64,000 nt of DNA, taken from UHGV virus genome UHGV-0113858; one strand, given 5' to 3'. Position 1 is the stretch's first letter. Every line of letters begins with the position of its first letter. A program made the translations under genes and the position numbers. Positions 1-54,734 of this stretch are shown piece by piece. Source of the DNA: a virus. The notes beneath the pieces were generated by a model, which ran no database searches, was not told the origin of the DNA, and saw only the letters and a program-made list of their open reading frames with translations.

Positions 1-5
1 ACATC

Positions 6-377
6 ATGCGCTTAACTAACTTTGACCGTTACTACATCCGCGACGAACAAGCCAGCGCTTTCGGGTATGATCGTTCTATGTGTATGCAGCAGCACAAAGA
101 AGGCGCACGTTTACACGTTGAAACCGTTGCTTTTGAAAATTATTTCATGGCTACTTTTACCGATGGTTTGCAAATGTCTATTGAGTTTAAAAATGGCGTT
201 ATGACCCTCGCAACCGAAGACAAATTTCGTAAAAAAGATCTCCGCGCTCATCCTTGTTTTGCAACTAATAAAGAATTATTGATCCGTGTTTATATCCGCC
301 ACGTTGTAGGCCGCATCGCTAACGAACAGCAGATCGCCGCCCTTGTTGATCTGGCCCTGAATCTCGATTTAAACTAA
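6..377 (+). CDS. hypothetical protein (123 aa)
   Basis: ORF in six-frame track; no recognisable motif. Confidence 0.35.
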   Translation: MRLTNFDRYYIRDEQASAFGYDRSMCMQQHKEGARLHVETVAFENYFMATFTDGLQMSIEFKNGVMTLATEDKFRKKDLRAHPCFATNKELLIRVYIRHVVGRIANEQQIAALVDLALNLDLN

Positions 378-407
378 TTGACAACGGGGCCGAAAGGCCC
401 CATAATA
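378..407 (+). promoter_or_regulatory. sigma70-like promoter; its 18-nt spacer is a GGGGCC-GAAA-GGCCCC hairpin
   Basis: TTGACA at 378-383, ATAATA at 402-407, hairpin 386-401 upstream of ORF 440. Confidence 0.3.
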
Positions 408-439
408 CAGACTCACTAAACAAAACGAGGTAAACGGAA

Positions 440-754
440 ATGACTAAATCTAAATTCTTTGAAATGCTGGATAAATATCTATCAAGCCATAACGAGTGGG
501 CCAAACTTGGAAACGGTGGCGATTCATACAACGCTCGCCAGCTTAAACCCTACGTTTTCCACGAAGATCCGGCAAAACTGAAAGCATATCAAGAAAAAGA
601 TCCGTCATATCCCTGGACCGCTCACGCATCAGGTTTTACCCTAGCTGATTGTTGGCATGTTGAAGTAATGCAACATAAAACCGCCGAGGCGGCAGAAAAG
701 CAAGCCAAGATTTTTACCCGCTGGATCGCTGAATATAAAGAGCTTAACAAATAA
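440..754 (+). CDS. hypothetical protein (104 aa)
   Basis: ORF with AGG-rich RBS; followed by GC hairpin. Confidence 0.45.
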   Translation: MTKSKFFEMLDKYLSSHNEWAKLGNGGDSYNARQLKPYVFHEDPAKLKAYQEKDPSYPWTAHASGFTLADCWHVEVMQHKTAEAAEKQAKIFTRWIAEYKELNK

Positions 755-761
755 TTAAACC

Positions 762-779
762 GGGGCGCTAGCCGCCCCG
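762..779 (+). terminator. possible intrinsic terminator hairpin (GGGGCG-CTAGC-CGCCCC)
   Basis: stem-loop directly after ORF 440-754; weak T tract. Confidence 0.3.
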
Positions 780-802
780 TTATCCTTTGAGGTAAAGCAA
801 TT

Positions 803-1033
803 ATGATTAATATTAGTGTTGACAAGTTAGCCGAAATCATCCAGAAAGCAGGCGATGAAAAATATGGCGTAAACGATTGTTATTTCATTGGGCAGTATGA
901 GGACGGGCGCTATTATGGTGTGTTGTCTAACAAGGTGAAAAGCCGTAGCAGCGCCGCACAATTGCGCCGCCCGGAGTTTTTAGAACAAAAGGGCCTTAAA
1001 GTAATAAAAGTAATTAAACGCAAAAAAGGTTAA
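803..1033 (+). CDS. hypothetical protein (76 aa)
   Basis: ORF, GAGG RBS. Confidence 0.4.
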   Translation: MINISVDKLAEIIQKAGDEKYGVNDCYFIGQYEDGRYYGVLSNKVKSRSSAAQLRRPEFLEQKGLKVIKVIKRKKG

Positions 1034-1245
1034 TGATCATGAGAACTGTAAAAGCGAAGGAATTAAAAGGCGGAATGGTCATTGAGTTACCGGACATTGC
1101 ACCAGGCTTTAAGCCGGGTAGCGTCCTCATCACACAAATAGAAATCGAAGCGCCCCACATTGTGGAAGTATCTTTCTATTACAAAAAGCGCTATATGGCC
1201 GACCTTTATCACCCTGAGGCGGAATTTAAACTAATCGGTGAATGA
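1033..1245 (+). CDS. hypothetical protein (70 aa)
   Basis: ORF, start overlaps previous stop (ATGA). Confidence 0.4.
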   Translation: MIMRTVKAKELKGGMVIELPDIAPGFKPGSVLITQIEIEAPHIVEVSFYYKKRYMADLYHPEAEFKLIGE

Positions 1246-1358
1246 GGCTGTAAAGAAAAGGCAACTAATTAAAAAGCGCTTGCCTGGCCAGATGTTTTCG
1301 ACTATTATTTATTTCAGGGCGGGAAGATAATCAACCCGCAAAACCGAAGGTAAATAAA

Positions 1359-1529
1359 ATGTCAAATATCCGCTACAATATCAAAAGCACTTCAAAAACC
1401 GGTTATGTGTCTTATGTTCGCCAGGGGTCTACAACTGCTTGGACCTTTGAAGAATGTATGAAAATTGTTACTACGCTTTCAGGTGATGATCGCTATATGG
1501 GCGTTTTATTTGAGATTGAATTAGCTTAA
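1359..1529 (+). CDS. small hypothetical protein (56 aa, below ORF-track cutoff)
   Basis: ATG with GAAGG RBS; ends just before terminator. Confidence 0.3.
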   Translation: MSNIRYNIKSTSKTGYVSYVRQGSTTAWTFEECMKIVTTLSGDDRYMGVLFEIELA

Positions 1530-1546
1530 TTAGCAAAATAACACCG

Positions 1547-1570
1547 GGGCGCTATTGCAGCGCCCTTTTT
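1547..1570 (+). terminator. rho-independent terminator
   Basis: GGGCGCT-ATTGC-AGCGCCC stem followed by TTTTT. Confidence 0.7.
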
Positions 1571-1614
1571 CGTCTGTTATTCTTCTATCTCCTTCATTAA
1601 ACGAGTAACACCAA

Positions 1615-1878
1615 ATGACAAACATGATTTACACTGTAAGCAAAACAAGCCTTTTACGCGCTACCCTGCTGGCTTGCCTTATTGCTTTAGTGTCTAATAC
1701 GTGTTTTAACTCGCTGGCTTGCCTGGTAACGACTGAGACAATGGCGCAAGGTTTTAACACCATGATCGACGTTTTACAATTGACGTTTTACACTCTGATT
1801 AAACTTAATCGCTTTAATCGTTTAGACCGTTATGATCTCCCTTTCTTGATCGCTGGCCTGCTGGCTATCGCGCTGTAA
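1615..1878 (+). CDS. hypothetical hydrophobic protein (87 aa)
   Basis: ORF, hydrophobic segments. Confidence 0.35.
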   Translation: MTNMIYTVSKTSLLRATLLACLIALVSNTCFNSLACLVTTETMAQGFNTMIDVLQLTFYTLIKLNRFNRLDRYDLPFLIAGLLAIAL

Positions 1879-2252
1879 GTCTCCACTACTCCCCAAAAAT
1901 AATGCCGGGCAACTCCCGCTTTTGTGTTTTTATACTTTAGGTTTTATCAATCAATAATCAAAAAGTGATAGATGACTAAAACCTGCATAATCGAGATCTC
2001 CAGACGGTAACCCACTAACCAGGGTAAGAGATAAAGCCCCTCAAAATGGCACATATTGCGCTTAAAATGGTATGGCCCTACCTAACAACCCCAACAATTA
2101 ATAACGCATGTTATTAACTGAATAAAACATGCATTTTTAAGCATTATGTATGCATAGTGTGAGAATCGCTATCAAATGACAACTTTTATCATCTAGCCTA
2201 TTGTGTGAACTGGTTTTATTGAGCATAAAAATAAAATCTTGTCAAATAAAAA

Positions 2253-2270
2253 TCGTTCGCGTAATCGTGG
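2253..2270. repeat. direct repeat copy 1 (TCGTTCGCGTAATCGTGG)
   Basis: 18-mer repeated at 2392-2409 with one mismatch. Confidence 0.8.
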
Positions 2271-2292
2271 GGAGTGGCGCGAGCGTAGCGAG

Positions 2293-2311
2293 CGACACAA
2301 TAACACGGGAG
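2293..2311. repeat. left arm of a perfect 19-bp inverted repeat (CGACACAATAACACGGGAG)
   Basis: exact reverse complement at 2529-2547. Confidence 0.9.
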
Positions 2312-2391
2312 TAACTCAAATGATAATCTCCCCGTCGCTAAAGCGATTAGCAACTAAAGTTGCTAACCCGTGGAACGGGCTATTATCATTT

Positions 2392-2409
2392 TCGTTCGCG
2401 TTATCGTGG
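2392..2409. repeat. direct repeat copy 2 (TCGTTCGCGTTATCGTGG)
   Basis: matches 2253-2270 at 17/18. Confidence 0.8.
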
Positions 2410-2528
2410 CTCGTAGACGCCTAAGAGCGAATGAAAATTGTTATCATTAAGATGATTACATACGTAATCATTAACAGCCTAATTTTATCACATCGCCACG
2501 ATAACACCGATCACGCCCTGCGTGATCG

Positions 2529-2547
2529 CTCCCGTGTTATTGTGTCG
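2529..2547. repeat. right arm of the perfect 19-bp inverted repeat
   Basis: CTCCCGTGTTATTGTGTCG is the exact reverse complement of 2293-2311. Confidence 0.9.
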
Positions 2548-2959
2548 ATAGATATCGATTAGCGTAAACGCTAACCCGTTTCGGGCATTGATTGTGTCGG
2601 TATGTGATGATAACACATGGTTACTATATGCGATCAAATCGCATTAAATCGTGAATAATGGTTGACAAACCAGAATTATTGATAATGAAAACATGTTGTT
2701 TTTGAGCATAGTTTGCCTGAAGTGTCAATATAAATTTATCATAGGGAATAGCTATCAATCCCTTGCGTAGCAATAAAGAAAATAGTTACCTATTGTAACT
2801 ATTTCAATGCTTTAGCATTGCCGGGTATCCGGTCCGTAACGGTGTTGATGGGAATGATTATCATTGCGGAAATGCTCAAAGTATAGCTGTGTGTTAAACA
2901 CAATTCTCTCTCCTTGTCAAGCTTTTATTTATAAATTTACAAAATATTTATATTTGCGG

Positions 2960-2972
2960 AATGATTCTCATT
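2960..2972. repeat. AATGATTCTCATT motif copy 1
   Basis: 13-mer repeated at 3001-3013 and as a palindromic doublet at 3609-3627. Confidence 0.8.
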
Positions 2973-3000
2973 TCGAAATTGAATTCGAAATCGAAATAAT

Positions 3001-3013
3001 AATGATTCTCATT
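3001..3013. repeat. AATGATTCTCATT motif copy 2
   Basis: identical 13-mer. Confidence 0.8.
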
Positions 3014-3505
3014 CGTCGTCTCATTCACAAAACAACCCTAAAACATGAATAATCACACATGAAACTATCACCACAGTAACAGTCACACCATGTAATGACC
3101 TGAAGCGGCTGGCCTATGCGTCGCACTGGTAACATTGGGGCATTATTAGCTTGCTATGTGTTGTTATCTAGTGCGTATAACGTGTTTTATGTTAAATGGC
3201 GTAATTCATATAAATATAAACAAGTCAATAGCAAATCGTGCTCTAAGCTGGCAAACCATATGCTTGCTATGTATCACACACAATTATTATTAGTTTCGGC
3301 AAGTAACTATCATGTCTGAGGAGGCCCCGAGGAACCGGGAACCGGATCGACCTTGCCCATGATATTTTGTAAAGATCCGTAAAAATAGTTGACGCCCGGA
3401 GCTGTCCGTCTAGCACCTCAGACAGTGCGAATGCTCCAAAACACCCAGACAGATATTTTTCGGCAAGTGATATTTTCGGCAGGGGGCATGTTTTGATTTC
3501 CCCAC

Positions 3506-3539
3506 GGGGGAAGGGGTGGTTATACGGGGAAAACAGGGG
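3506..3539 (+). other. G-quadruplex-type motif GGGGG-AA-GGGG-N9-GGGG-N6-GGGG inside a G-tract island (3482-3566)
   Basis: four G4+ tracts within 34 nt in an otherwise AT-rich non-coding region. Confidence 0.5.
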
Positions 3540-3608
3540 CCTGTTTACGGTATCGACATATCGGGGAGTCCCTTCAGATTGTGTGTTAATGAAATGAGTA
3601 CGTAGTAC

Positions 3609-3627
3609 AATGAGAATCATTCTCATT
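3609..3627. repeat. near-palindrome AATGAGAATCATTCTCATT (both orientations of the motif fused)
   Basis: contains the reverse complement and the forward copy of the 13-mer. Confidence 0.75.
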
Positions 3628-3731
3628 TACAGACAACCGGGCAGGTCCGGTGATTGTTTCGTGCAGCCTCAGCACCTGTTGCTGTGTGCAGGATAACAGG
3701 GTTGCCTATTCAGGTCAACCCCTTCGTGCGG

Positions 3732-4019
3732 TCACCACTGATGAAATCTTTTGTGCTCCCATCTCGCCCGGCTGATGATACACCACATAGCCTGTTCATC
3801 ATAGAAACCAAGCGCTTTAAGCTCTTGCTTCACATCGCTCAACTGTGCGTATAAATAAAGCTTTTTACTACCTTGACGCAGGAGGATAGCTGGTACAAGT
3901 GTCTTTGCATAGTCCAACAACACCTCTATTCTCTGCCTTTTCCCTTCAGATTTCTTGCGTGGGCAATTCCTGATGTGTGCCAGTTTTGCTGGCGCTTTTA
4001 CTACTTTGTTGAAAGCCAT
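3732..4019 (-). CDS. hypothetical basic protein (95 aa)
   Basis: ORF with AAGGAA RBS; last gene of the leftward block. Confidence 0.4.
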   Translation of the reverse strand: MAFNKVVKAPAKLAHIRNCPRKKSEGKRQRIEVLLDYAKTLVPAILLRQGSKKLYLYAQLSDVKQELKALGFYDEQAMWCIISRARWEHKRFHQW

Positions 4020-4028
4020 AGAGGTTCC

Positions 4029-4196
4029 TTAAAGAATGGTTGTGATGATCAGACATTGTTGTGTGGTTCTCATCATTGCATGGGTGGCCTGGCCCGTTGG
4101 AGGGTCGTTATTGTCATCATCGTCATCTACGAATAAGGTAAGGACCACCACCACGATGGCAACAATCCCCAACACCCAAAGAACTATAAGTCCCAT
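4029..4196 (-). CDS. small membrane peptide (55 aa, poly-Asp tail)
   Basis: hydrophobic helix; start coupled to upstream stop (TGATG). Confidence 0.3.
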   Translation of the reverse strand: MGLIVLWVLGIVAIVVVVLTLFVDDDDDNNDPPTGQATHAMMRTTQQCLIITTIL

Positions 4197-4312
4197 CATT
4201 CATCCTTCTTAGCCACTGGCCCAATAGATACGTACAACATCATCCCATAAGGGATAAGGATCAGGAGCACTGTAATCAGCATCCCTAGTAATAAGAAACC
4301 CATGTCGTCCAT
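4196..4312 (-). CDS. small membrane peptide (38 aa)
   Basis: GAGGAG RBS, single TM helix. Confidence 0.3.
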   Translation of the reverse strand: MDDMGFLLLGMLITVLLILIPYGMMLYVSIGPVAKKDE

Positions 4313-4435
4313 AAAATTCTCCTCGTGTAATTGATAGAGGGAGTATAATCGCCGAGCCTGTTTACGTCAAGGTAAATTGATGCTCCACTTTAGATAAAAG
4401 AAAAGGAGCCTCTTCAGACTCCCTTGTGGTGTGGG

Positions 4436-4864
4436 TCAGATATTCTTGACTGCGATCAGGTTTGGGACATACGTACATGTTGGGGAGTAAGGGGTGTCCT
4501 TCCTGCGAAGCTGTGTCTTGCACAGAGAAGCATGTGATTGTGTGTCCACAGGCTCTCGGTCATAGAACGGATATCCGCTGCACATGTACGGGCGATCCTC
4601 GTAAATTGAGCACTTGTTGTCTTTCAGCTTTGTGCAGGTAAAGTAGCTGGTGAAGTGATTTGTTCCTTTACCAACTTCCTCACGACCTGTAACAACAAGA
4701 GGATTCCGTTTGTAGGCCTCATCCCTGGAGATTGGTTTCATCATCTCCCCGTGGATAGCAGATATTCTTCCGGCCCTGATTTTTTCGTGGAAGTCTTCGT
4801 GGGTGATGTTGTCTATGGCGATAACTTCACAACAGGCACTGCAATTATGGCAATGTTTTATCAT
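4436..4864 (-). CDS. YkgJ-family CxxCxxCC zinc/iron-chelating domain protein
   Basis: N-terminal CHNCSACC motif (C-x2-C-x2-CC) plus extra Cys. Confidence 0.45.
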   Translation of the reverse strand: MIKHCHNCSACCEVIAIDNITHEDFHEKIRAGRISAIHGEMMKPISRDEAYKRNPLVVTGREEVGKGTNHFTSYFTCTKLKDNKCSIYEDRPYMCSGYPFYDREPVDTQSHASLCKTQLRRKDTPYSPTCTYVPNLIAVKNI

Positions 4865-5182
4865 TTATAACCTCATCCAGGTTTGATAGTCAGCTTCTGT
4901 GTGGTGCTCATCCCGTGCAACCTTTTGTGGTGGAGCAGGGTTCTTTGCAGCAGCTTCCATGATTCCCCGTGGGTCGGGGTCTTCAATCAGGTGTTTGTGT
5001 TCATCACAGGCGTAATGCTTGTACCAGTCACGCAGTCCCCACGGTGGTTGGTATTTCGTCATAACTGTGCAGCGCCTGCGGATGCCAATGGCTTTGCAGA
5101 ATTTGCAGTAGGTTATAGGTTTGCACTTCTTCAGCGGGATAGCTTTCATTATCACCCCGCAAATGGATGGTGCAGAATACAC
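4865..5182 (-). CDS. hypothetical Cys-containing protein
   Basis: ORF; true start may be an internal Met. Confidence 0.35.
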   Translation of the reverse strand: MYSAPSICGVIMKAIPLKKCKPITYCKFCKAIGIRRRCTVMTKYQPPWGLRDWYKHYACDEHKHLIEDPDPRGIMEAAAKNPAPPQKVARDEHHTEADYQTWMRL

Positions 5183-5346
5183 ACAGCGAAGTTAAATAGT
5201 GTCAGCAACTGAAGTGGCAGCATCCACCACCGACGTCCTTCGGGAAAGAATTGCACCATACTTCTCCAACCAACACATTCGAAAACCGCTGCGACGGAGA
5301 TGAATAACCAAAGAAACCAGAGTATTGCCAATAGTGCTGTCATCAA
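5152..5346 (-). CDS. small membrane protein (64 aa)
   Basis: hydrophobic ORF. Confidence 0.3.
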   Translation of the reverse strand: MMTALLAILWFLWLFISVAAVFECVGWRSMVQFFPEGRRWWMLPLQLLTLFNFAVCILHHPFAG

Positions 5347-5546
5347 TAATATTCCCCCTCATCACCCATATACCACGAGTCCGGGCTATCGTCTAAAGCA
5401 GCCTCTCCCCAGTCACGGCTCTTTTTCCCTTTGGTCTGTTCCTTTCCAAAAAGAGCAGTCCCGTCAAGAAGATGGCCCATAGCTTTCTCGCCCTTTTTGA
5501 CGATCCTCCCACGGGCATTCCATTCTTCAAATGTTCTGTAGGCCAT
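5343..5546 (-). CDS. hypothetical protein (67 aa)
   Basis: ORF in leftward block. Confidence 0.35.
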   Translation of the reverse strand: MAYRTFEEWNARGRIVKKGEKAMGHLLDGTALFGKEQTKGKKSRDWGEAALDDSPDSWYMGDEGEYY

Positions 5547-5555
5547 AATTTTCCA

Positions 5556-5834
5556 TCACCAAAGAATTACATAGTTATGCTTCAAGCATCTCTTCATACC
5601 ATAAAGGTCGGCCTGAATGCACATGATGACCAACTCACGATCGAAAGATGTCATGCCGTCTTCATGGCAACTCTTTACATAGTTTTCGATCCAAACTTCA
5701 TCTGTTAACAGCGCCTCTGTGGTAGCAATTTCTTGCTTTATCCACTCACGCTCTTCAGGTGTTATTGGGGTCCCCATCCTTGCATCCGTAAAGATATTCA
5801 TGGTGTCATCTCCCACCAAACATTGAACATCCAT
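5556..5834 (-). CDS. hypothetical protein (92 aa)
   Basis: ORF. Confidence 0.4.
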   Translation of the reverse strand: MDVQCLVGDDTMNIFTDARMGTPITPEEREWIKQEIATTEALLTDEVWIENYVKSCHEDGMTSFDRELVIMCIQADLYGMKRCLKHNYVILW

Positions 5835-6031
5835 GCTGAAAGAAATGCATGGGCAATCATCATGAGACCAGGGAAAACAAACGGATCTTCTTTTTTACGA
5901 AGCAGGAGTGTTAATCCCTGCAACCCACAGCAAACCGTGTTCAAAATGAACAAGAAAAACGTAAATACTAAGACAAACATATCCTTACTCCCAAAGACCA
6001 AAGTGATTAAGTACCGCGATGATGAGAACAA
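5798..6031 (-). CDS. small membrane protein (77 aa)
   Basis: two hydrophobic helices. Confidence 0.3.
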   Translation of the reverse strand: MFSSSRYLITLVFGSKDMFVLVFTFFLFILNTVCCGLQGLTLLLRKKEDPFVFPGLMMIAHAFLSAWMFNVWWEMTP

Positions 6032-6192
6032 TGGCTACGACTTTCAGGATAAAAGGCAGACATCCGAGGTTCTCATAAACACCGCTTCTTTCCGCATTGA
6101 AGTGATCGCGGACGATCGCCCTCATTATCCAGAAATTCATAGCTCCTCCTCTTGATTAGATACCCTGAGGATATATTACTATCCATGAGGTG

Positions 6193-6438
6193 TCAAGGCT
6201 CTTTTCCAAAAAGAATACGATCATGACCAACAATAGCCTTCGTCTTTTCCTTCAGAGCGAACCGCTTTGTCCAGTCAGCCATGTCCTGAATGTACCAACA
6301 AGCCTCTGCCGCTGCACGAATATTCGCTACATATTCGAGTGCGCCCTGATACCCACGAGAAACACCCTCCGCCCACCGGATACCGGGGCGCGTTGTATCA
6401 AGATGCTCTAATGCCTTCTTAACATTTTCCATCATCAA
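6193..6438 (-). CDS. hypothetical protein (81 aa)
   Basis: ORF. Confidence 0.4.
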   Translation of the reverse strand: MMMENVKKALEHLDTTRPGIRWAEGVSRGYQGALEYVANIRAAAEACWYIQDMADWTKRFALKEKTKAIVGHDRILFGKEP

Positions 6439-6733
6439 CCTCCAGGAGATATTTTTGTCTACGTCGCACTCTCACATCATGCATACCTGTACTGCCGAGA
6501 AGATTTGCGATCTTCCATGATTTTACTTCAGGAAATTCCTTTTTTACCACACCCTGAAGATGTTTGTTTATTTTTCTACGGGTCTCCACTGCACGTTTAT
6601 AACCTTTAGTTTTGAACAGGTTACACCAGGTGTCTCTGGTATTTGCATCGATGCTGAAACTTCTCATCACTAATTGAAAGATCCGTTTACGGTGACCCGT
6701 ACATGTCTCATCGAGGACATAATAATTTTTCAC
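6419..6733 (-). CDS. hypothetical protein (104 aa)
   Basis: ORF. Confidence 0.4.
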   Translation of the reverse strand: MKNYYVLDETCTGHRKRIFQLVMRSFSIDANTRDTWCNLFKTKGYKRAVETRRKINKHLQGVVKKEFPEVKSWKIANLLGSTGMHDVRVRRRQKYLLEVDDGKC

Positions 6734-6820
6734 AAGAACTCCTTCACAAAAAGATCGACGGCAAAATCCAGGCCCCGGCGTAGCGGGGGTACTGGATTTG
6801 GACGGCGCGGCGCTTCGCGC

Positions 6821-7369
6821 CTATACACGATCACCAAACAGTTTTTCAAAGCTAGCCATTCTTTCTTTCACCCGTTCAGGGTCTGCGGACAAGAAGTGGC
6901 GACTATCGCCCCTGATAAGTGTTCCCGTGTAGCCGATACTTTTATTAAAGGCTGTGGCGATATCTTCCACAGCATATCCTCTCTTGTGCAGTTCCCTTAT
7001 GACCGCGACATCCTCGTCACTGAGTGCTTGATTTCCCGCCTTGATGTTCTTAGCAGTACCTTCGGGACCATTTTTACCCTTCACCATCCCCGTAACCTCA
7101 TAAAAGTATTCCGGGATTCTTGAAGGAACCAGCACAGGGTCTCTTAATCGGACGGCCTTTATAACCTTGTGGTATGAGATTCCCATCATTTCGGCTACTT
7201 TCGTCAAAGGCCATTTGGTGTACTTCTTGATGGCTTTCAGAAAGATAACCTCCTCGTTTGAGAGCGATCTCCCATTGGGGGTCCCACTCGGGTCCCACCA
7301 TTGGTAATCTCTTGCCATCTGCTGTAAAGACTGCGTTCCCATAGCCATATTTTTGCTTTCTATCTTCAT
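6821..7369 (-). CDS. hypothetical protein with two HTH-like segments (possible DNA-binding)
   Basis: LTKVAEMMGISYHKVIKA and YAVEDIATAFNKSIGYTGTLIRG helix-turn-helix-like patterns. Confidence 0.4.
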   Translation of the reverse strand: MKIESKNMAMGTQSLQQMARDYQWWDPSGTPNGRSLSNEEVIFLKAIKKYTKWPLTKVAEMMGISYHKVIKAVRLRDPVLVPSRIPEYFYEVTGMVKGKNGPEGTAKNIKAGNQALSDEDVAVIRELHKRGYAVEDIATAFNKSIGYTGTLIRGDSRHFLSADPERVKERMASFEKLFGDRV

Positions 7370-7528
7370 TCACCGCCACTCCATCTTTACGCAACCGTAG
7401 CCTTTGTCCTTACATTTTACCATCTGCCGAATGGCCTCGTCAAAGCTTTCGCCCTGCCAGAATACATAATATTTATACTCACCTTCGTAGGCGTTTGTCC
7501 AGTATTGGACAGTAAAAGTGCTTCCCAT
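7370..7528 (-). CDS. small hypothetical protein (52 aa)
   Basis: GGAGG RBS, stop adjacent to next ATG. Confidence 0.3.
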   Translation of the reverse strand: MGSTFTVQYWTNAYEGEYKYYVFWQGESFDEAIRQMVKCKDKGYGCVKMEWR

Positions 7529-7536
7529 TTAGCCTC

Positions 7537-7713
7537 CTAATGATTTTCTAATAGCCGCCAAAAACGATCCAGGAAAAGGTTAGCCCAGAATGCGAATGCT
7601 ATTCCAAACAACAACATCCCCAAGAACTCGCGAAATTCTGTTGTCAGCACCAGGCCAGTCCCCATGATAATGGTCATGATAACACAGCCCAAGGTTTTCC
7701 AGATCTCAATCAT
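7537..7713 (-). CDS. small membrane protein (58 aa)
   Basis: ATGA overlap with upstream ORF, two TM helices. Confidence 0.3.
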   Translation of the reverse strand: MIEIWKTLGCVIMTIIMGTGLVLTTEFREFLGMLLFGIAFAFWANLFLDRFWRLLENH

Positions 7714-7958
7714 AAAGCGCCATCCCAGATCTCAAAAGATTCACCACCAAGCCTGAGGAGATCATGCTCATGAATCGGACAACAACGAAATCCTTCCAGC
7801 AGGCACATTTTGTCTAAATTGTAAACAAGATATAAACTGCCTCCCTTAGACATGTAAATGTAAATGCCCTGTAACCACTTAGGGTCCCTGAAGTAAATTC
7901 CATTGCTCCGAGATTTCTTCAGAGCAGACTTTATCAAAACCAAATCATCGTAAATCAT
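7710..7958 (-). CDS. hypothetical protein (82 aa)
   Basis: ORF. Confidence 0.35.
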   Translation of the reverse strand: MIYDDLVLIKSALKKSRSNGIYFRDPKWLQGIYIYMSKGGSLYLVYNLDKMCLLEGFRCCPIHEHDLLRLGGESFEIWDGAL

Positions 7959-7970
7959 ATTTTATCCTCA

Positions 7971-8330
7971 TTAAGGCTTGGAAGGAGGGGCTGGTGGTGG
8001 ACCTGGTCGCAACATCTTAGCAGAGACTGCGGCGATAATCTCTTCCCGTGTGGGATAGTAAATGCACTCATCCTCTTTTTCCTGGACGTGCTCTGCAATC
8101 TTTGCCATTGCACTTTCTTTCGTCAAAGAGGAATTCCAAATGGTTAGCCACAGGAATCCAAAGAATTTTTCCTGCACCCACCAACGTCCACCTTGACATT
8201 TTAGCCTAAATTTATTCATCGTAAGAAATCCCCTTAACATAACGCCAAGTTTTACGGCAATAGGCGAGCCACTTGGCAAGTTCGTCTTCACCAACACCAG
8301 ATTTGCACAAATACCAGCCGTTGTCAACAC
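7971..8330 (-). CDS. hypothetical protein; probable true start at 8219 (MNKFRL, GGGGA RBS)
   Basis: ORF; N-terminal extension lacks an RBS. Confidence 0.35.
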   Translation of the reverse strand: MLTTAGICANLVLVKTNLPSGSPIAVKLGVMLRGFLTMNKFRLKCQGGRWWVQEKFFGFLWLTIWNSSLTKESAMAKIAEHVQEKEDECIYYPTREEIIAAVSAKMLRPGPPPAPPSKP

Positions 8331-54659: not shown

Positions 54660-54734
54660 TTCTCGATAGCTTACTTTGGTTAGAGCGGTCCCACGATAGG
54701 GACGGTACAGGTTCGATTCCTGTTCGAGAAGCCA
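54660..54734 (+). tRNA. tRNA of uncertain identity with atypical anticodon arm (perfect GTCCC/GGGAC stem around a 6-nt loop ACGATA, or a 7-nt loop with mispairs)
   Basis: good acceptor TTCTCGA/TCGAGAA, D and T arms, encoded CCA. Confidence 0.4.

Follow-up and report, generated by a model that had tools for sequence, protein, structure and literature searches.

A probable chromosome-end region in a Mydovirus phage genome: a 514-bp terminal repeat with inverted edge motifs and a covarying four-way-junction fold in its subterminal arm

Results

The probable joined chromosome ends of UHGV-0113858

The virus genome UHGV-0113858 was analyzed over a stretch of 64,000 nucleotides (the window), within which the region at positions 1880 to 3730 separates two convergent gene blocks and probably represents the ends of the phage chromosome. 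The last gene of the rightward block stops at 1878, the leftward block stops at 3732, and all open reading frames (ORFs) in between are short, in agreement with the first-pass annotation, which had been made from the sequence without database searches and described an ORF-poor region between convergent transcription units. The flanking ORFs encode small proteins of unassigned function, one of them T4 Gp30.7-like and another with a CxxCxxCC domain. Megablast placed the window in the subfamily Vequintavirinae, genus Mydovirus (i.e., rV5-like myoviruses of ~145 kb). Its core genes are 98.5% identical to those of the Klebsiella Mydovirus phages KpS8 and Seu621, which marks it as a phage of Klebsiella, and region 1880-3730 shows 83 to 91% identity to relatives, with numerous indels. 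Perfect short hairpins are concentrated here: kilobase 2001-3000 contains 16 matches (~11 distinct hairpins), versus 0 to 8 per kilobase elsewhere in the window.

A direct terminal repeat (DTR) of the genus maps inside this region. The KPP-1 paper reports a 514-bp DTR at 116,316-116,829, identified by doubled coverage and PhageTerm and classified as T7 type. That 514-nt segment aligns to window positions 2897-3410 with 96% identity and no indels, and the terminal 60 nt on each side match the window exactly. In the GenBank record of Klebsiella phage DP, a 514-bp repeat_region is annotated at both ends, with the same edges as in the window; by BLAST, DP position 1 falls on window position 2897 and the last DP base on 3410. 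In the record of phage KP12, the first base corresponds to 3410 and the last to 3411, so the record was opened exactly at the 3410/3411 edge. DTRs have also been reported for KPP-X1 (Mydovirus) and for Gotham (Vequintavirus, 459 bp), and those of Mydovirus occupy the same place as the window's, between gene blocks that converge on the ends. Homology to measured relatives therefore shows the position and exact edges of the terminal repeat (2897-3410) and predicts physical chromosome ends at 2896/2897 and 3410/3411. The window holds one copy of the repeat, as expected when an assembler collapses the copies from both ends.

On either side of the repeat, segments 1880-2896 and 3411-3730 are each predicted to form the non-coding subterminal arm of one chromosome end, both neighboring blocks being transcribed toward those ends. 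We estimate a probability of roughly 85% that the whole region is the Mydovirus chromosome-end region, two arms and a 514-bp DTR made into one continuous junction by assembly collapse; the mechanism by which it would work is addressed by analogy in the Discussion. A packaging or terminus region had been among the readings offered by the first-pass annotation, and the mapping of the ends and repeat of the genus to 2897-3410 bears it out. The identity of the DTR is already known for the genus, and the region is ordinary in kind.

The repeat also contains a 67-amino-acid ORF (3116-3319) that is given as a coding sequence (CDS) in the records of DP, KPP-1, BIS47, Ro1, AV124, and EspYZU15. Its start and stop vary among relatives and Seunavirus phages lack it altogether; with no PHROG family, a Pfam match below threshold, and relatives that have lost the start or carry premature stops, we rejected it as a protein gene. 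Most likely no gene is present here, and several CDS calls inside this region in relatives' records are probably spurious. A separate case is the 951-nt CDS KP12_246 (hypothetical protein; 144812-145762 of the KP12 record), which is inserted in the subterminal arm between the positions homologous to 3509 and 3551, where the window and other relatives have ~40 nt. Just outside the DTR, a direct repeat (AATGCTCAAAG / AATGCTCCAAA) at 2872-2882 and 3430-3440 flanks it, 15 to 25 bp beyond the left edge and 20 to 30 bp beyond the right; its left copy is kept across genera and its right copy within Mydovirus only.

An inverted motif at the two repeat edges

The two edges of the repeat resemble each other when each is read from the inside outward. 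At the right edge (plus strand), the sequence is ...CTGTCCGTC/TAGCAC, where the slash marks the edge; CCGTC lies inside the repeat and the outer motif TAGCA (3411-3415) is kept in all aligned phages. At the left edge (minus strand), the reverse complement reads ...GAATTGTGTT/TAACAC in the window and TAGCAA beyond the slash in most relatives, with GTGTT inside the repeat and the outer motif TAACA (TAGCA in most relatives) at 2892-2896. This likeness holds in 14 of 14 aligned phages (Mydovirus and Seunavirus), and the sequence just beyond diverges. The independently determined edges of the distant coliphage Gotham, CCGTCCGCC/TGGCAG and CTTGTC/TGACAT, are both homologous to those of the window, plainly so for the Gotham TTGACAAAGAGGAGAAAAACTTGTC edge and the window TTGACAAGGAGAGAGAATTGTGTT edge. 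The edges thus share, at the level of sequence, the form GYY/TRRCA, inverted at the two ends of the DTR and present in Gotham too. This motif appears to be undescribed, and its two copies are candidate terminase cut sites.

Some neighboring signals were considered and set aside. Read as sigma-70 promoters, the TTGACA hexamers of the repeat edges and the TTGAGCATA/TGTCAA units described below had a poor -10 or the wrong spacing, and the palindrome TGTGTTAAACACA at the left edge of the window was dropped because KPP-1 does not conserve it. Gotham carries, just outside its repeat edge (496-580), 4 to 5 copies of TGTTTACA at ~16-bp spacing, an iteron-like array with no counterpart in the window.

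A covarying four-way junction outside the left edge

The most structured part of the left arm is enclosed by the 19-bp inverted repeat CGACACAATAACACGGGAG (2293-2311), whose complement lies at 2529-2547. The first-pass annotation had reported this pair as perfect, and it is: 217 nt separate the arms, and only ~6e-6 such pairs would be expected by chance in 1.85 kb. RNAalifold analysis of 17 distinct sequences yielded a conserved four-way-junction fold of 255 nt (2293-2547), in which the inverted repeat forms the closing stem P1 (2293-2311 / 2529-2547). Inside it are P2 (2313-2326 / 2383-2396), the invariant P3 (2400-2410 / 2495-2505) with a hypervariable apex of ~84 nt, and P4 (2509-2515 / 2522-2528), which carries GATC in both arms.

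Covariation strongly supports these stems. For the 45 pairs counted in the 17 sequences, 99.6% of cells form a standard pair; compensatory change on both sides occurs at 8 of the 45 pairs (32 cells), and one-sided change occurs at none. Of 500 shuffles, none attained the covariation score or paired fraction of the real alignment and 3 attained its compensatory-pair count; slid registers gave 0 compensatory pairs. Fold z-scores were -11.6 for the DNA plus strand, -9.8 for the RNA plus strand, and -10.6 for the RNA minus strand. The surrounding block 2082-2547 has 75 to 88% identity to Seunavirus phages (PVP-SE1, GAP31, 4MG, and NINP13076), in which its gene annotation is inconsistent, and is at least as conserved as core genes (mostly 60 to 80% identity in non-Mydovirus records). 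Its conservation ends exactly at the right arm of the inverted repeat. When IMG/VR and metagenome contigs were scanned by pattern for a wider range of fold homologues, mostly the same isolates were recovered.

Gotham has no alignable sequence here, and an 18-bp inverted repeat (659-676 / 793-810), perfect and enclosing nested hairpins, is present there together with a perfect flanking 20-bp direct repeat. This element is 200 bp outside the homologous edge, on the same side as in the window, and has a fold z-score of -9.1.

These data can also be read at the RNA level, with 2090-2700 as a plus-strand gene for a structured noncoding RNA of ~250 to 490 nt, transcribed from a promoter near 2176-2204, and the junction as an RNA fold unrelated to the ends. 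The strong covariation and z-scores are what such a gene would give, the variable insertions in hairpin loops are seen in many structured RNAs, and both a promoter-like site (2176-2204) and, in KPP-1 and PVP-SE1, a plus-strand terminator-like hairpin 100 to 190 nt downstream are present. However, the promoter match is weak (9/12, a level often reached by dinucleotide shuffles), the GC-rich terminator is missing in the window itself, where that hairpin has been replaced, and no Rfam 15 covariance model matched window positions 1-8000 on either strand at an E value of ≤1. At two pairs, some sequences have G-C and others A-U, yet G-U intermediates are absent from the 45 pairs in the 17 sequences, a pattern that fits DNA-level pairing at least as well as RNA pairing, although 17 related sequences cannot decide between them. 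Gotham's analogous element, moreover, keeps the same place relative to the repeat edge. We therefore regard an RNA gene as rather unlikely. A literature search for transcriptomes of Vequintavirinae gave nothing usable, and phage Bas63 of the PhageMaP work proved to be a Felixounavirus.

The covarying junction appears to be undescribed. As a cis-acting fold-back element located 350 bp outside the left edge, and formed in single-stranded DNA or perhaps in a transcript, it would, more tentatively, take part in concatemer processing, packaging, or end replication.

Clustered palindromic boxes in both arms and the repeat

Palindromes of 19 bp with the form AATGA-N9-TCATT make up a family whose members lie at 2175, 2318 (the one that forms P2), 2430, 2847, 2954, 2995, and 3609. 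Among matches to the perfect palindrome, the best five (four with at least 15/19 and one with 14/19) all fall at 2430-3627, and five others with 14/19, located elsewhere in the window, rank lowest among those listed; with a degenerate box pattern, 4 of 12 window matches fall in these 1.45 kb. One box (2847-2865, core AATGATTATCATT) lies 32 bp outside the left DTR edge and matches the 19-bp Fur consensus at 14/19. Two more inside the repeat (2954-2972 and 2995-3013) flank three TCGAAAT repeats (2954-3013 in all) and are conserved across genera. The last is the perfect 19-bp palindrome AATGAGAATCATTCTCATT (3609-3627), followed by a hairpin at 3636-3651. The first-pass annotation had listed three copies of AATGATTCTCATT, and these were recovered as parts of the same family, exact at 2960-2972 and 3001-3013, with the third on the minus strand within AATGAGAATCATTCTCATT.

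The 52 nt at 3609-3660 have ~85% identity to noncoding gaps in Vequintavirus, Certrevirus, Pectobacterium, and Erwinia phages; the box at 3609-3627 itself is missing from close relatives in Mydovirus. In Murica (Vequintavirus) and CR3 (Certrevirus), two to three Fur-like boxes stand in tandem, ~29 bp start to start, upstream of a TATAAT-like -10 and in a ~950-nt gene-free gap within a unidirectional block. Boxes also occur inside the Gotham repeat. The rV5-type 52-nt element is carried as well by records labeled Campylobacter phage (MG0656xx: D1, C15, C5, A12a, and A13b; 75 to 141 kb), just as in Escherichia coli Vequintavirus phages, and the host label of these records looks doubtful.

The box family seems not to have been described before. 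Its members would be hairpin or protein-binding modules of a terminal control region, an assignment more weakly founded than that of the repeat. A different account makes them operators for host Fur or a phage dimeric regulator and the region mainly a transcription-control zone for promoters firing into or out of the repeat. Matches of 14 to 15/19 to the Fur consensus occur at 2427/2433, 2844/2850, 2998, and 3606/3612 (consensus matches only), i.e., at four loci within 1.2 kb versus five loci with similar scores in the other 62 kb. This clustering, that of the best palindromes, the tandem boxes ahead of a -10 in CR3 and Murica, and the boxes inside the Gotham repeat would all suit operators. 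Compared with the Fur box (GATAATGATAATCATTATC; 7-1-7 TGATAATnATTATCA), the window boxes are likewise clustered 19-bp AT-rich palindromes, but they carry a symmetric T-to-G change that gives TGAGAAT, and one has compensatory changes typical of a base-paired stem. In that box, which forms P2, paired substitutions in both halves (AATGATAA..TTATCATT to AATGCGAA..TTCGCATT) keep the pairing and alter the supposed recognition sequence. Resemblance to Fur boxes also comes easily to AT-rich palindromes. We judge an operator function improbable as the main role of the region.

Origin-like features

About as doubtful, in our assessment, is a phage replication origin within the region (another reading offered by the first-pass annotation), whose AT-rich DNA, direct repeats, and fold-backs would load the helicase and primase, with the terminal repeat merely adjacent. 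GC content falls to 31% at 2600-2800 and 2900-3100. The direct repeats comprise an 18-nt pair at 2253/2392, GATATTTTCGGCA twice, and TCGAAAT three times. The 18-nt repeat, also noted in the first-pass annotation, is present and conserved, although its copies are identical at 17 of 18 positions and thus not perfect. Multi-hairpin single-strand folds serve as priming signals in other replicons, and rV5-like phages are without an established origin. Set against these points, the direct repeats are essentially two-copy and would scarcely amount to an iteron array, no DnaA box (TTATCCACA, ≤1 mismatch) is found in 1880-3730, as the first-pass annotation had also stated, and no replication-initiator gene is adjacent, the flanking ORFs being small. 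The GC-skew changes in rV5, furthermore, follow the direction of transcription.

A further idea, that the 19-bp inverted repeats bound a small non-autonomous element resembling a miniature inverted-repeat transposable element, is largely refuted and has a negligible chance of being right. A 255-bp element with perfect 19-bp inverted ends has that appearance, but it lacks a target-site duplication (GCGAG before and ATAGA after), is found once per genome and not again in the 64-kb window, sits at a shared site in two genera, and has conserved, covarying internal stems.

Leader block, hairpin cassettes, and transcription signals

Upstream of the junction, a conserved noncoding leader block (2090-2292) is kept across Mydovirus and Seunavirus. 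It contains a hairpin (2098-2117), a palindromic box (2175-2193), the two-part motif TTGAGCATA-N13-TGTCAA (2219-2246), and the first copy of the 18-nt direct repeat (2253-2270); the ATGCAT boxes that had been reported were found at 2128-2158. A search of 2086-2296 for further structure gave one covarying hairpin only (2098-2117, one compensatory pair). Repeat-family listing and alignment located a second copy of the two-part motif, TTGAGCATA-N12/13-TGTCAA, at 2702-2728. A T-run precedes each of the two copies, TGTCAA recurs at the left repeat edge (2914-2919), and the spacing is unsuited to a sigma-70 promoter on either strand.

The repeats listed in the first-pass annotation were all recovered at or close to their given coordinates and greatly exceed chance expectation, and that annotation had treated all of them as one architecture. 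They fall instead into conserved structural stems, conserved palindromic boxes, and lineage-specific hairpin insertions, and only part of them is conserved in aligned relatives: the 19-bp inverted repeat and the boxes are, and the palindromes GCAACTAAAGTTGC and CCCGTGGAACGGG are insertions. The latter two, both located within 2350-2379, belong to a 54-nt triple-hairpin cassette in the P2 loop (2330-2383) that was found in just 5 records, from 2 genera and at a constant site, and is absent from most relatives. It is 100% identical in Mydo and NDO71 and 92.6% identical in Salmonella phages NINP13076 and SalP219. A second, similar cassette (2552-2603; TTAGCG-TAAA-CGCTAA and then CCCG-TTT-CGGG) is found only in the window and FENT2 among the aligned phages, and another similar hairpin piece is present in Mydo and Ro1 at the place of window 2228. 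A 68-nt multi-hairpin cassette (2779-2846) is polymorphic for presence, occurring in 25 records and not in Ro1, AV124, GAP31, 4MG, and others. The cassettes are single-copy, site-specific, and at odds with phylogeny, and no extra copies were found within the window. In Cronobacter phage Csp-D17 (115407-115471), the 68-nt cassette matches on the strand opposite to its flanking conserved block; either it is inverted or its palindromic makeup lets BLAST align it either way.

Terminators following the rightward genes had been proposed, and terminator-like hairpins do lie at 1546-1566 and, with a T-run, at ~1904-1930 on the plus strand, where the rightward block ends. The latter is flagged in KPP-1, and its homologous site is an annotated bidirectional terminator in phage Mydo. 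Two promoter-like sites were identified. One, inside the repeat (3024-3053, plus strand; TTCACA-18-AATAAT), matches at 10/12 in the window and KPP-1 and at 9/12 in PVP-SE1. The other (3690-3718, minus strand; TTGACC-17-TATCCT, extended -10 with TG upstream) is present in the window and again at the homologous position in KPP-1 and PVP-SE1, and it points from the leftward gene block toward the repeat.

In the right arm, what had been called tandem TTTTCGGCA is a genuine repeat that is better described as two plus-strand copies of GATATTTT(T)CGGCA (3452-3465 and 3469-3481, together 3452-3481), both kept in Mydovirus and one in Seunavirus. The G-tract island seen earlier follows at 3482-3539 (plus strand) and includes the hairpin TTCCCCACGGGGGAA (3498-3512). 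It has five G-runs (G5, G5, G4, G4, and G4) with short loops, ~70 to 130 bp outside the right repeat edge, and the first runs are kept in Seunavirus; a plus-strand G-quadruplex could form here, judging from these runs. Far from the region, ARAGORN reported a tRNA-like gene (54660-54734) with an undetermined two-base anticodon (ga), within a cluster of 21 tRNA genes at 51.6 to 59.0 kb.

Discussion

The elements described here that go beyond the published papers and records consulted are the inverted edge motif, the covarying four-way junction, and the clustered boxes, for which we propose roles by analogy. The repeat itself resembles the short DTRs described in Mydovirus and Vequintavirus phages and is like those of KPP-1 and DP in length, edges, and sequence. 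None of the published descriptions consulted mentions an edge motif, a junction fold, or boxes, and the ends in the window are placed by homology to these DTRs.

The closest mechanistic parallel is the concatemer junction of T7 and T3. Both systems have an exact short repeat, KPP-1 falls in the T7-type PhageTerm class, and, according to the rV5 paper, rV5-like phages encode a T7 gp4-like primase-helicase. Processing of T7 concatemers has been described as involving a hairpin DNA intermediate that carries the repeat (Chung, Nardone and Hinkle 1990, as cited), a point of likeness to the fold-back DNA proposed here, and the mechanism by which T7-type concatemers are cut and the repeat regenerated is still regarded as poorly understood. 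The systems differ in that the window phage is a ~145-kb myovirus using host RNA polymerase, its repeat is 514 bp rather than 160 bp and has no sequence similarity to T7 pac elements, and its fold is a four-way junction 200 to 400 bp from the edge.

T5 shares a terminally redundant linear genome with repeat-rich noncoding DNA near the ends. Its terminal repeat, however, spans ~10 kb and encodes pre-early genes, whereas that of the window has 514 bp and no conserved ORF. The suggestion of a T5-style injection-stop or first-step-transfer boundary in the first-pass annotation is thus not supported. At the corresponding convergent junction, the rV5 paper shows a "non-coding" box, for which expected bidirectional terminators were not located and no function was given. 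Both are gene-free stretches between convergent transcription units, and the window region has little sequence similarity to Vequintavirus beyond the repeat edges and the 52-nt box element.

By analogy with the T7 hairpin intermediate, the edge motif, fold, and boxes may have roles in cutting and repeat regeneration. During packaging, a terminase would cut concatemers at 2896/2897 and 3410/3411. Given the inverted arrangement of the GYY/TRRCA sites, equivalent strands would be nicked at the two edges, placing the nicks on opposite strands 514 bp apart; such opposite-strand nicks are a requirement of any fill-in or strand-displacement scheme that duplicates the repeat. The repeat would then be duplicated by DNA synthesis, as in T7-type packaging. 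The broader proposal, that the Watson-Crick-covarying junction and its Vequintavirus counterpart represent an undescribed cis-acting fold-back DNA across the subfamily that, with the inverted GYY/TRRCA sites, directs concatemer cutting and repeat regeneration, is speculative, and we think it unlikely to hold.

Several observations weigh against the interpretation of the region as a terminal processing zone. The ends of this phage are placed by homology and not by its own reads, and the edge motif is short and was derived only once the edges were known. The fold is 200 to 400 bp from the repeat edge, a variable distance that does not readily suggest direct priming. DNA and RNA action of the fold are not distinguished by these data, and the plus-strand terminator-like hairpin that follows it in KPP-1 and PVP-SE1 would suit a transcript too. 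Finally, the counterpart in Gotham and Vequintavirus is recognized by architecture, the three available sequences being nearly identical and hence uninformative for covariation.

For annotation, the start and end of this chromosome are now placed by homology. Two inverted cut-site motifs, a covarying junction on a constant side of the repeat, and a family of boxes are conserved, mutable candidates, carried by phages that are widely isolated as therapeutic agents against Klebsiella, E. coli, and Salmonella. If the proposal for the fold and the edge sites is true, they would provide a defined sequence-level entry point to DTR packaging, whose mechanism is still poorly understood.

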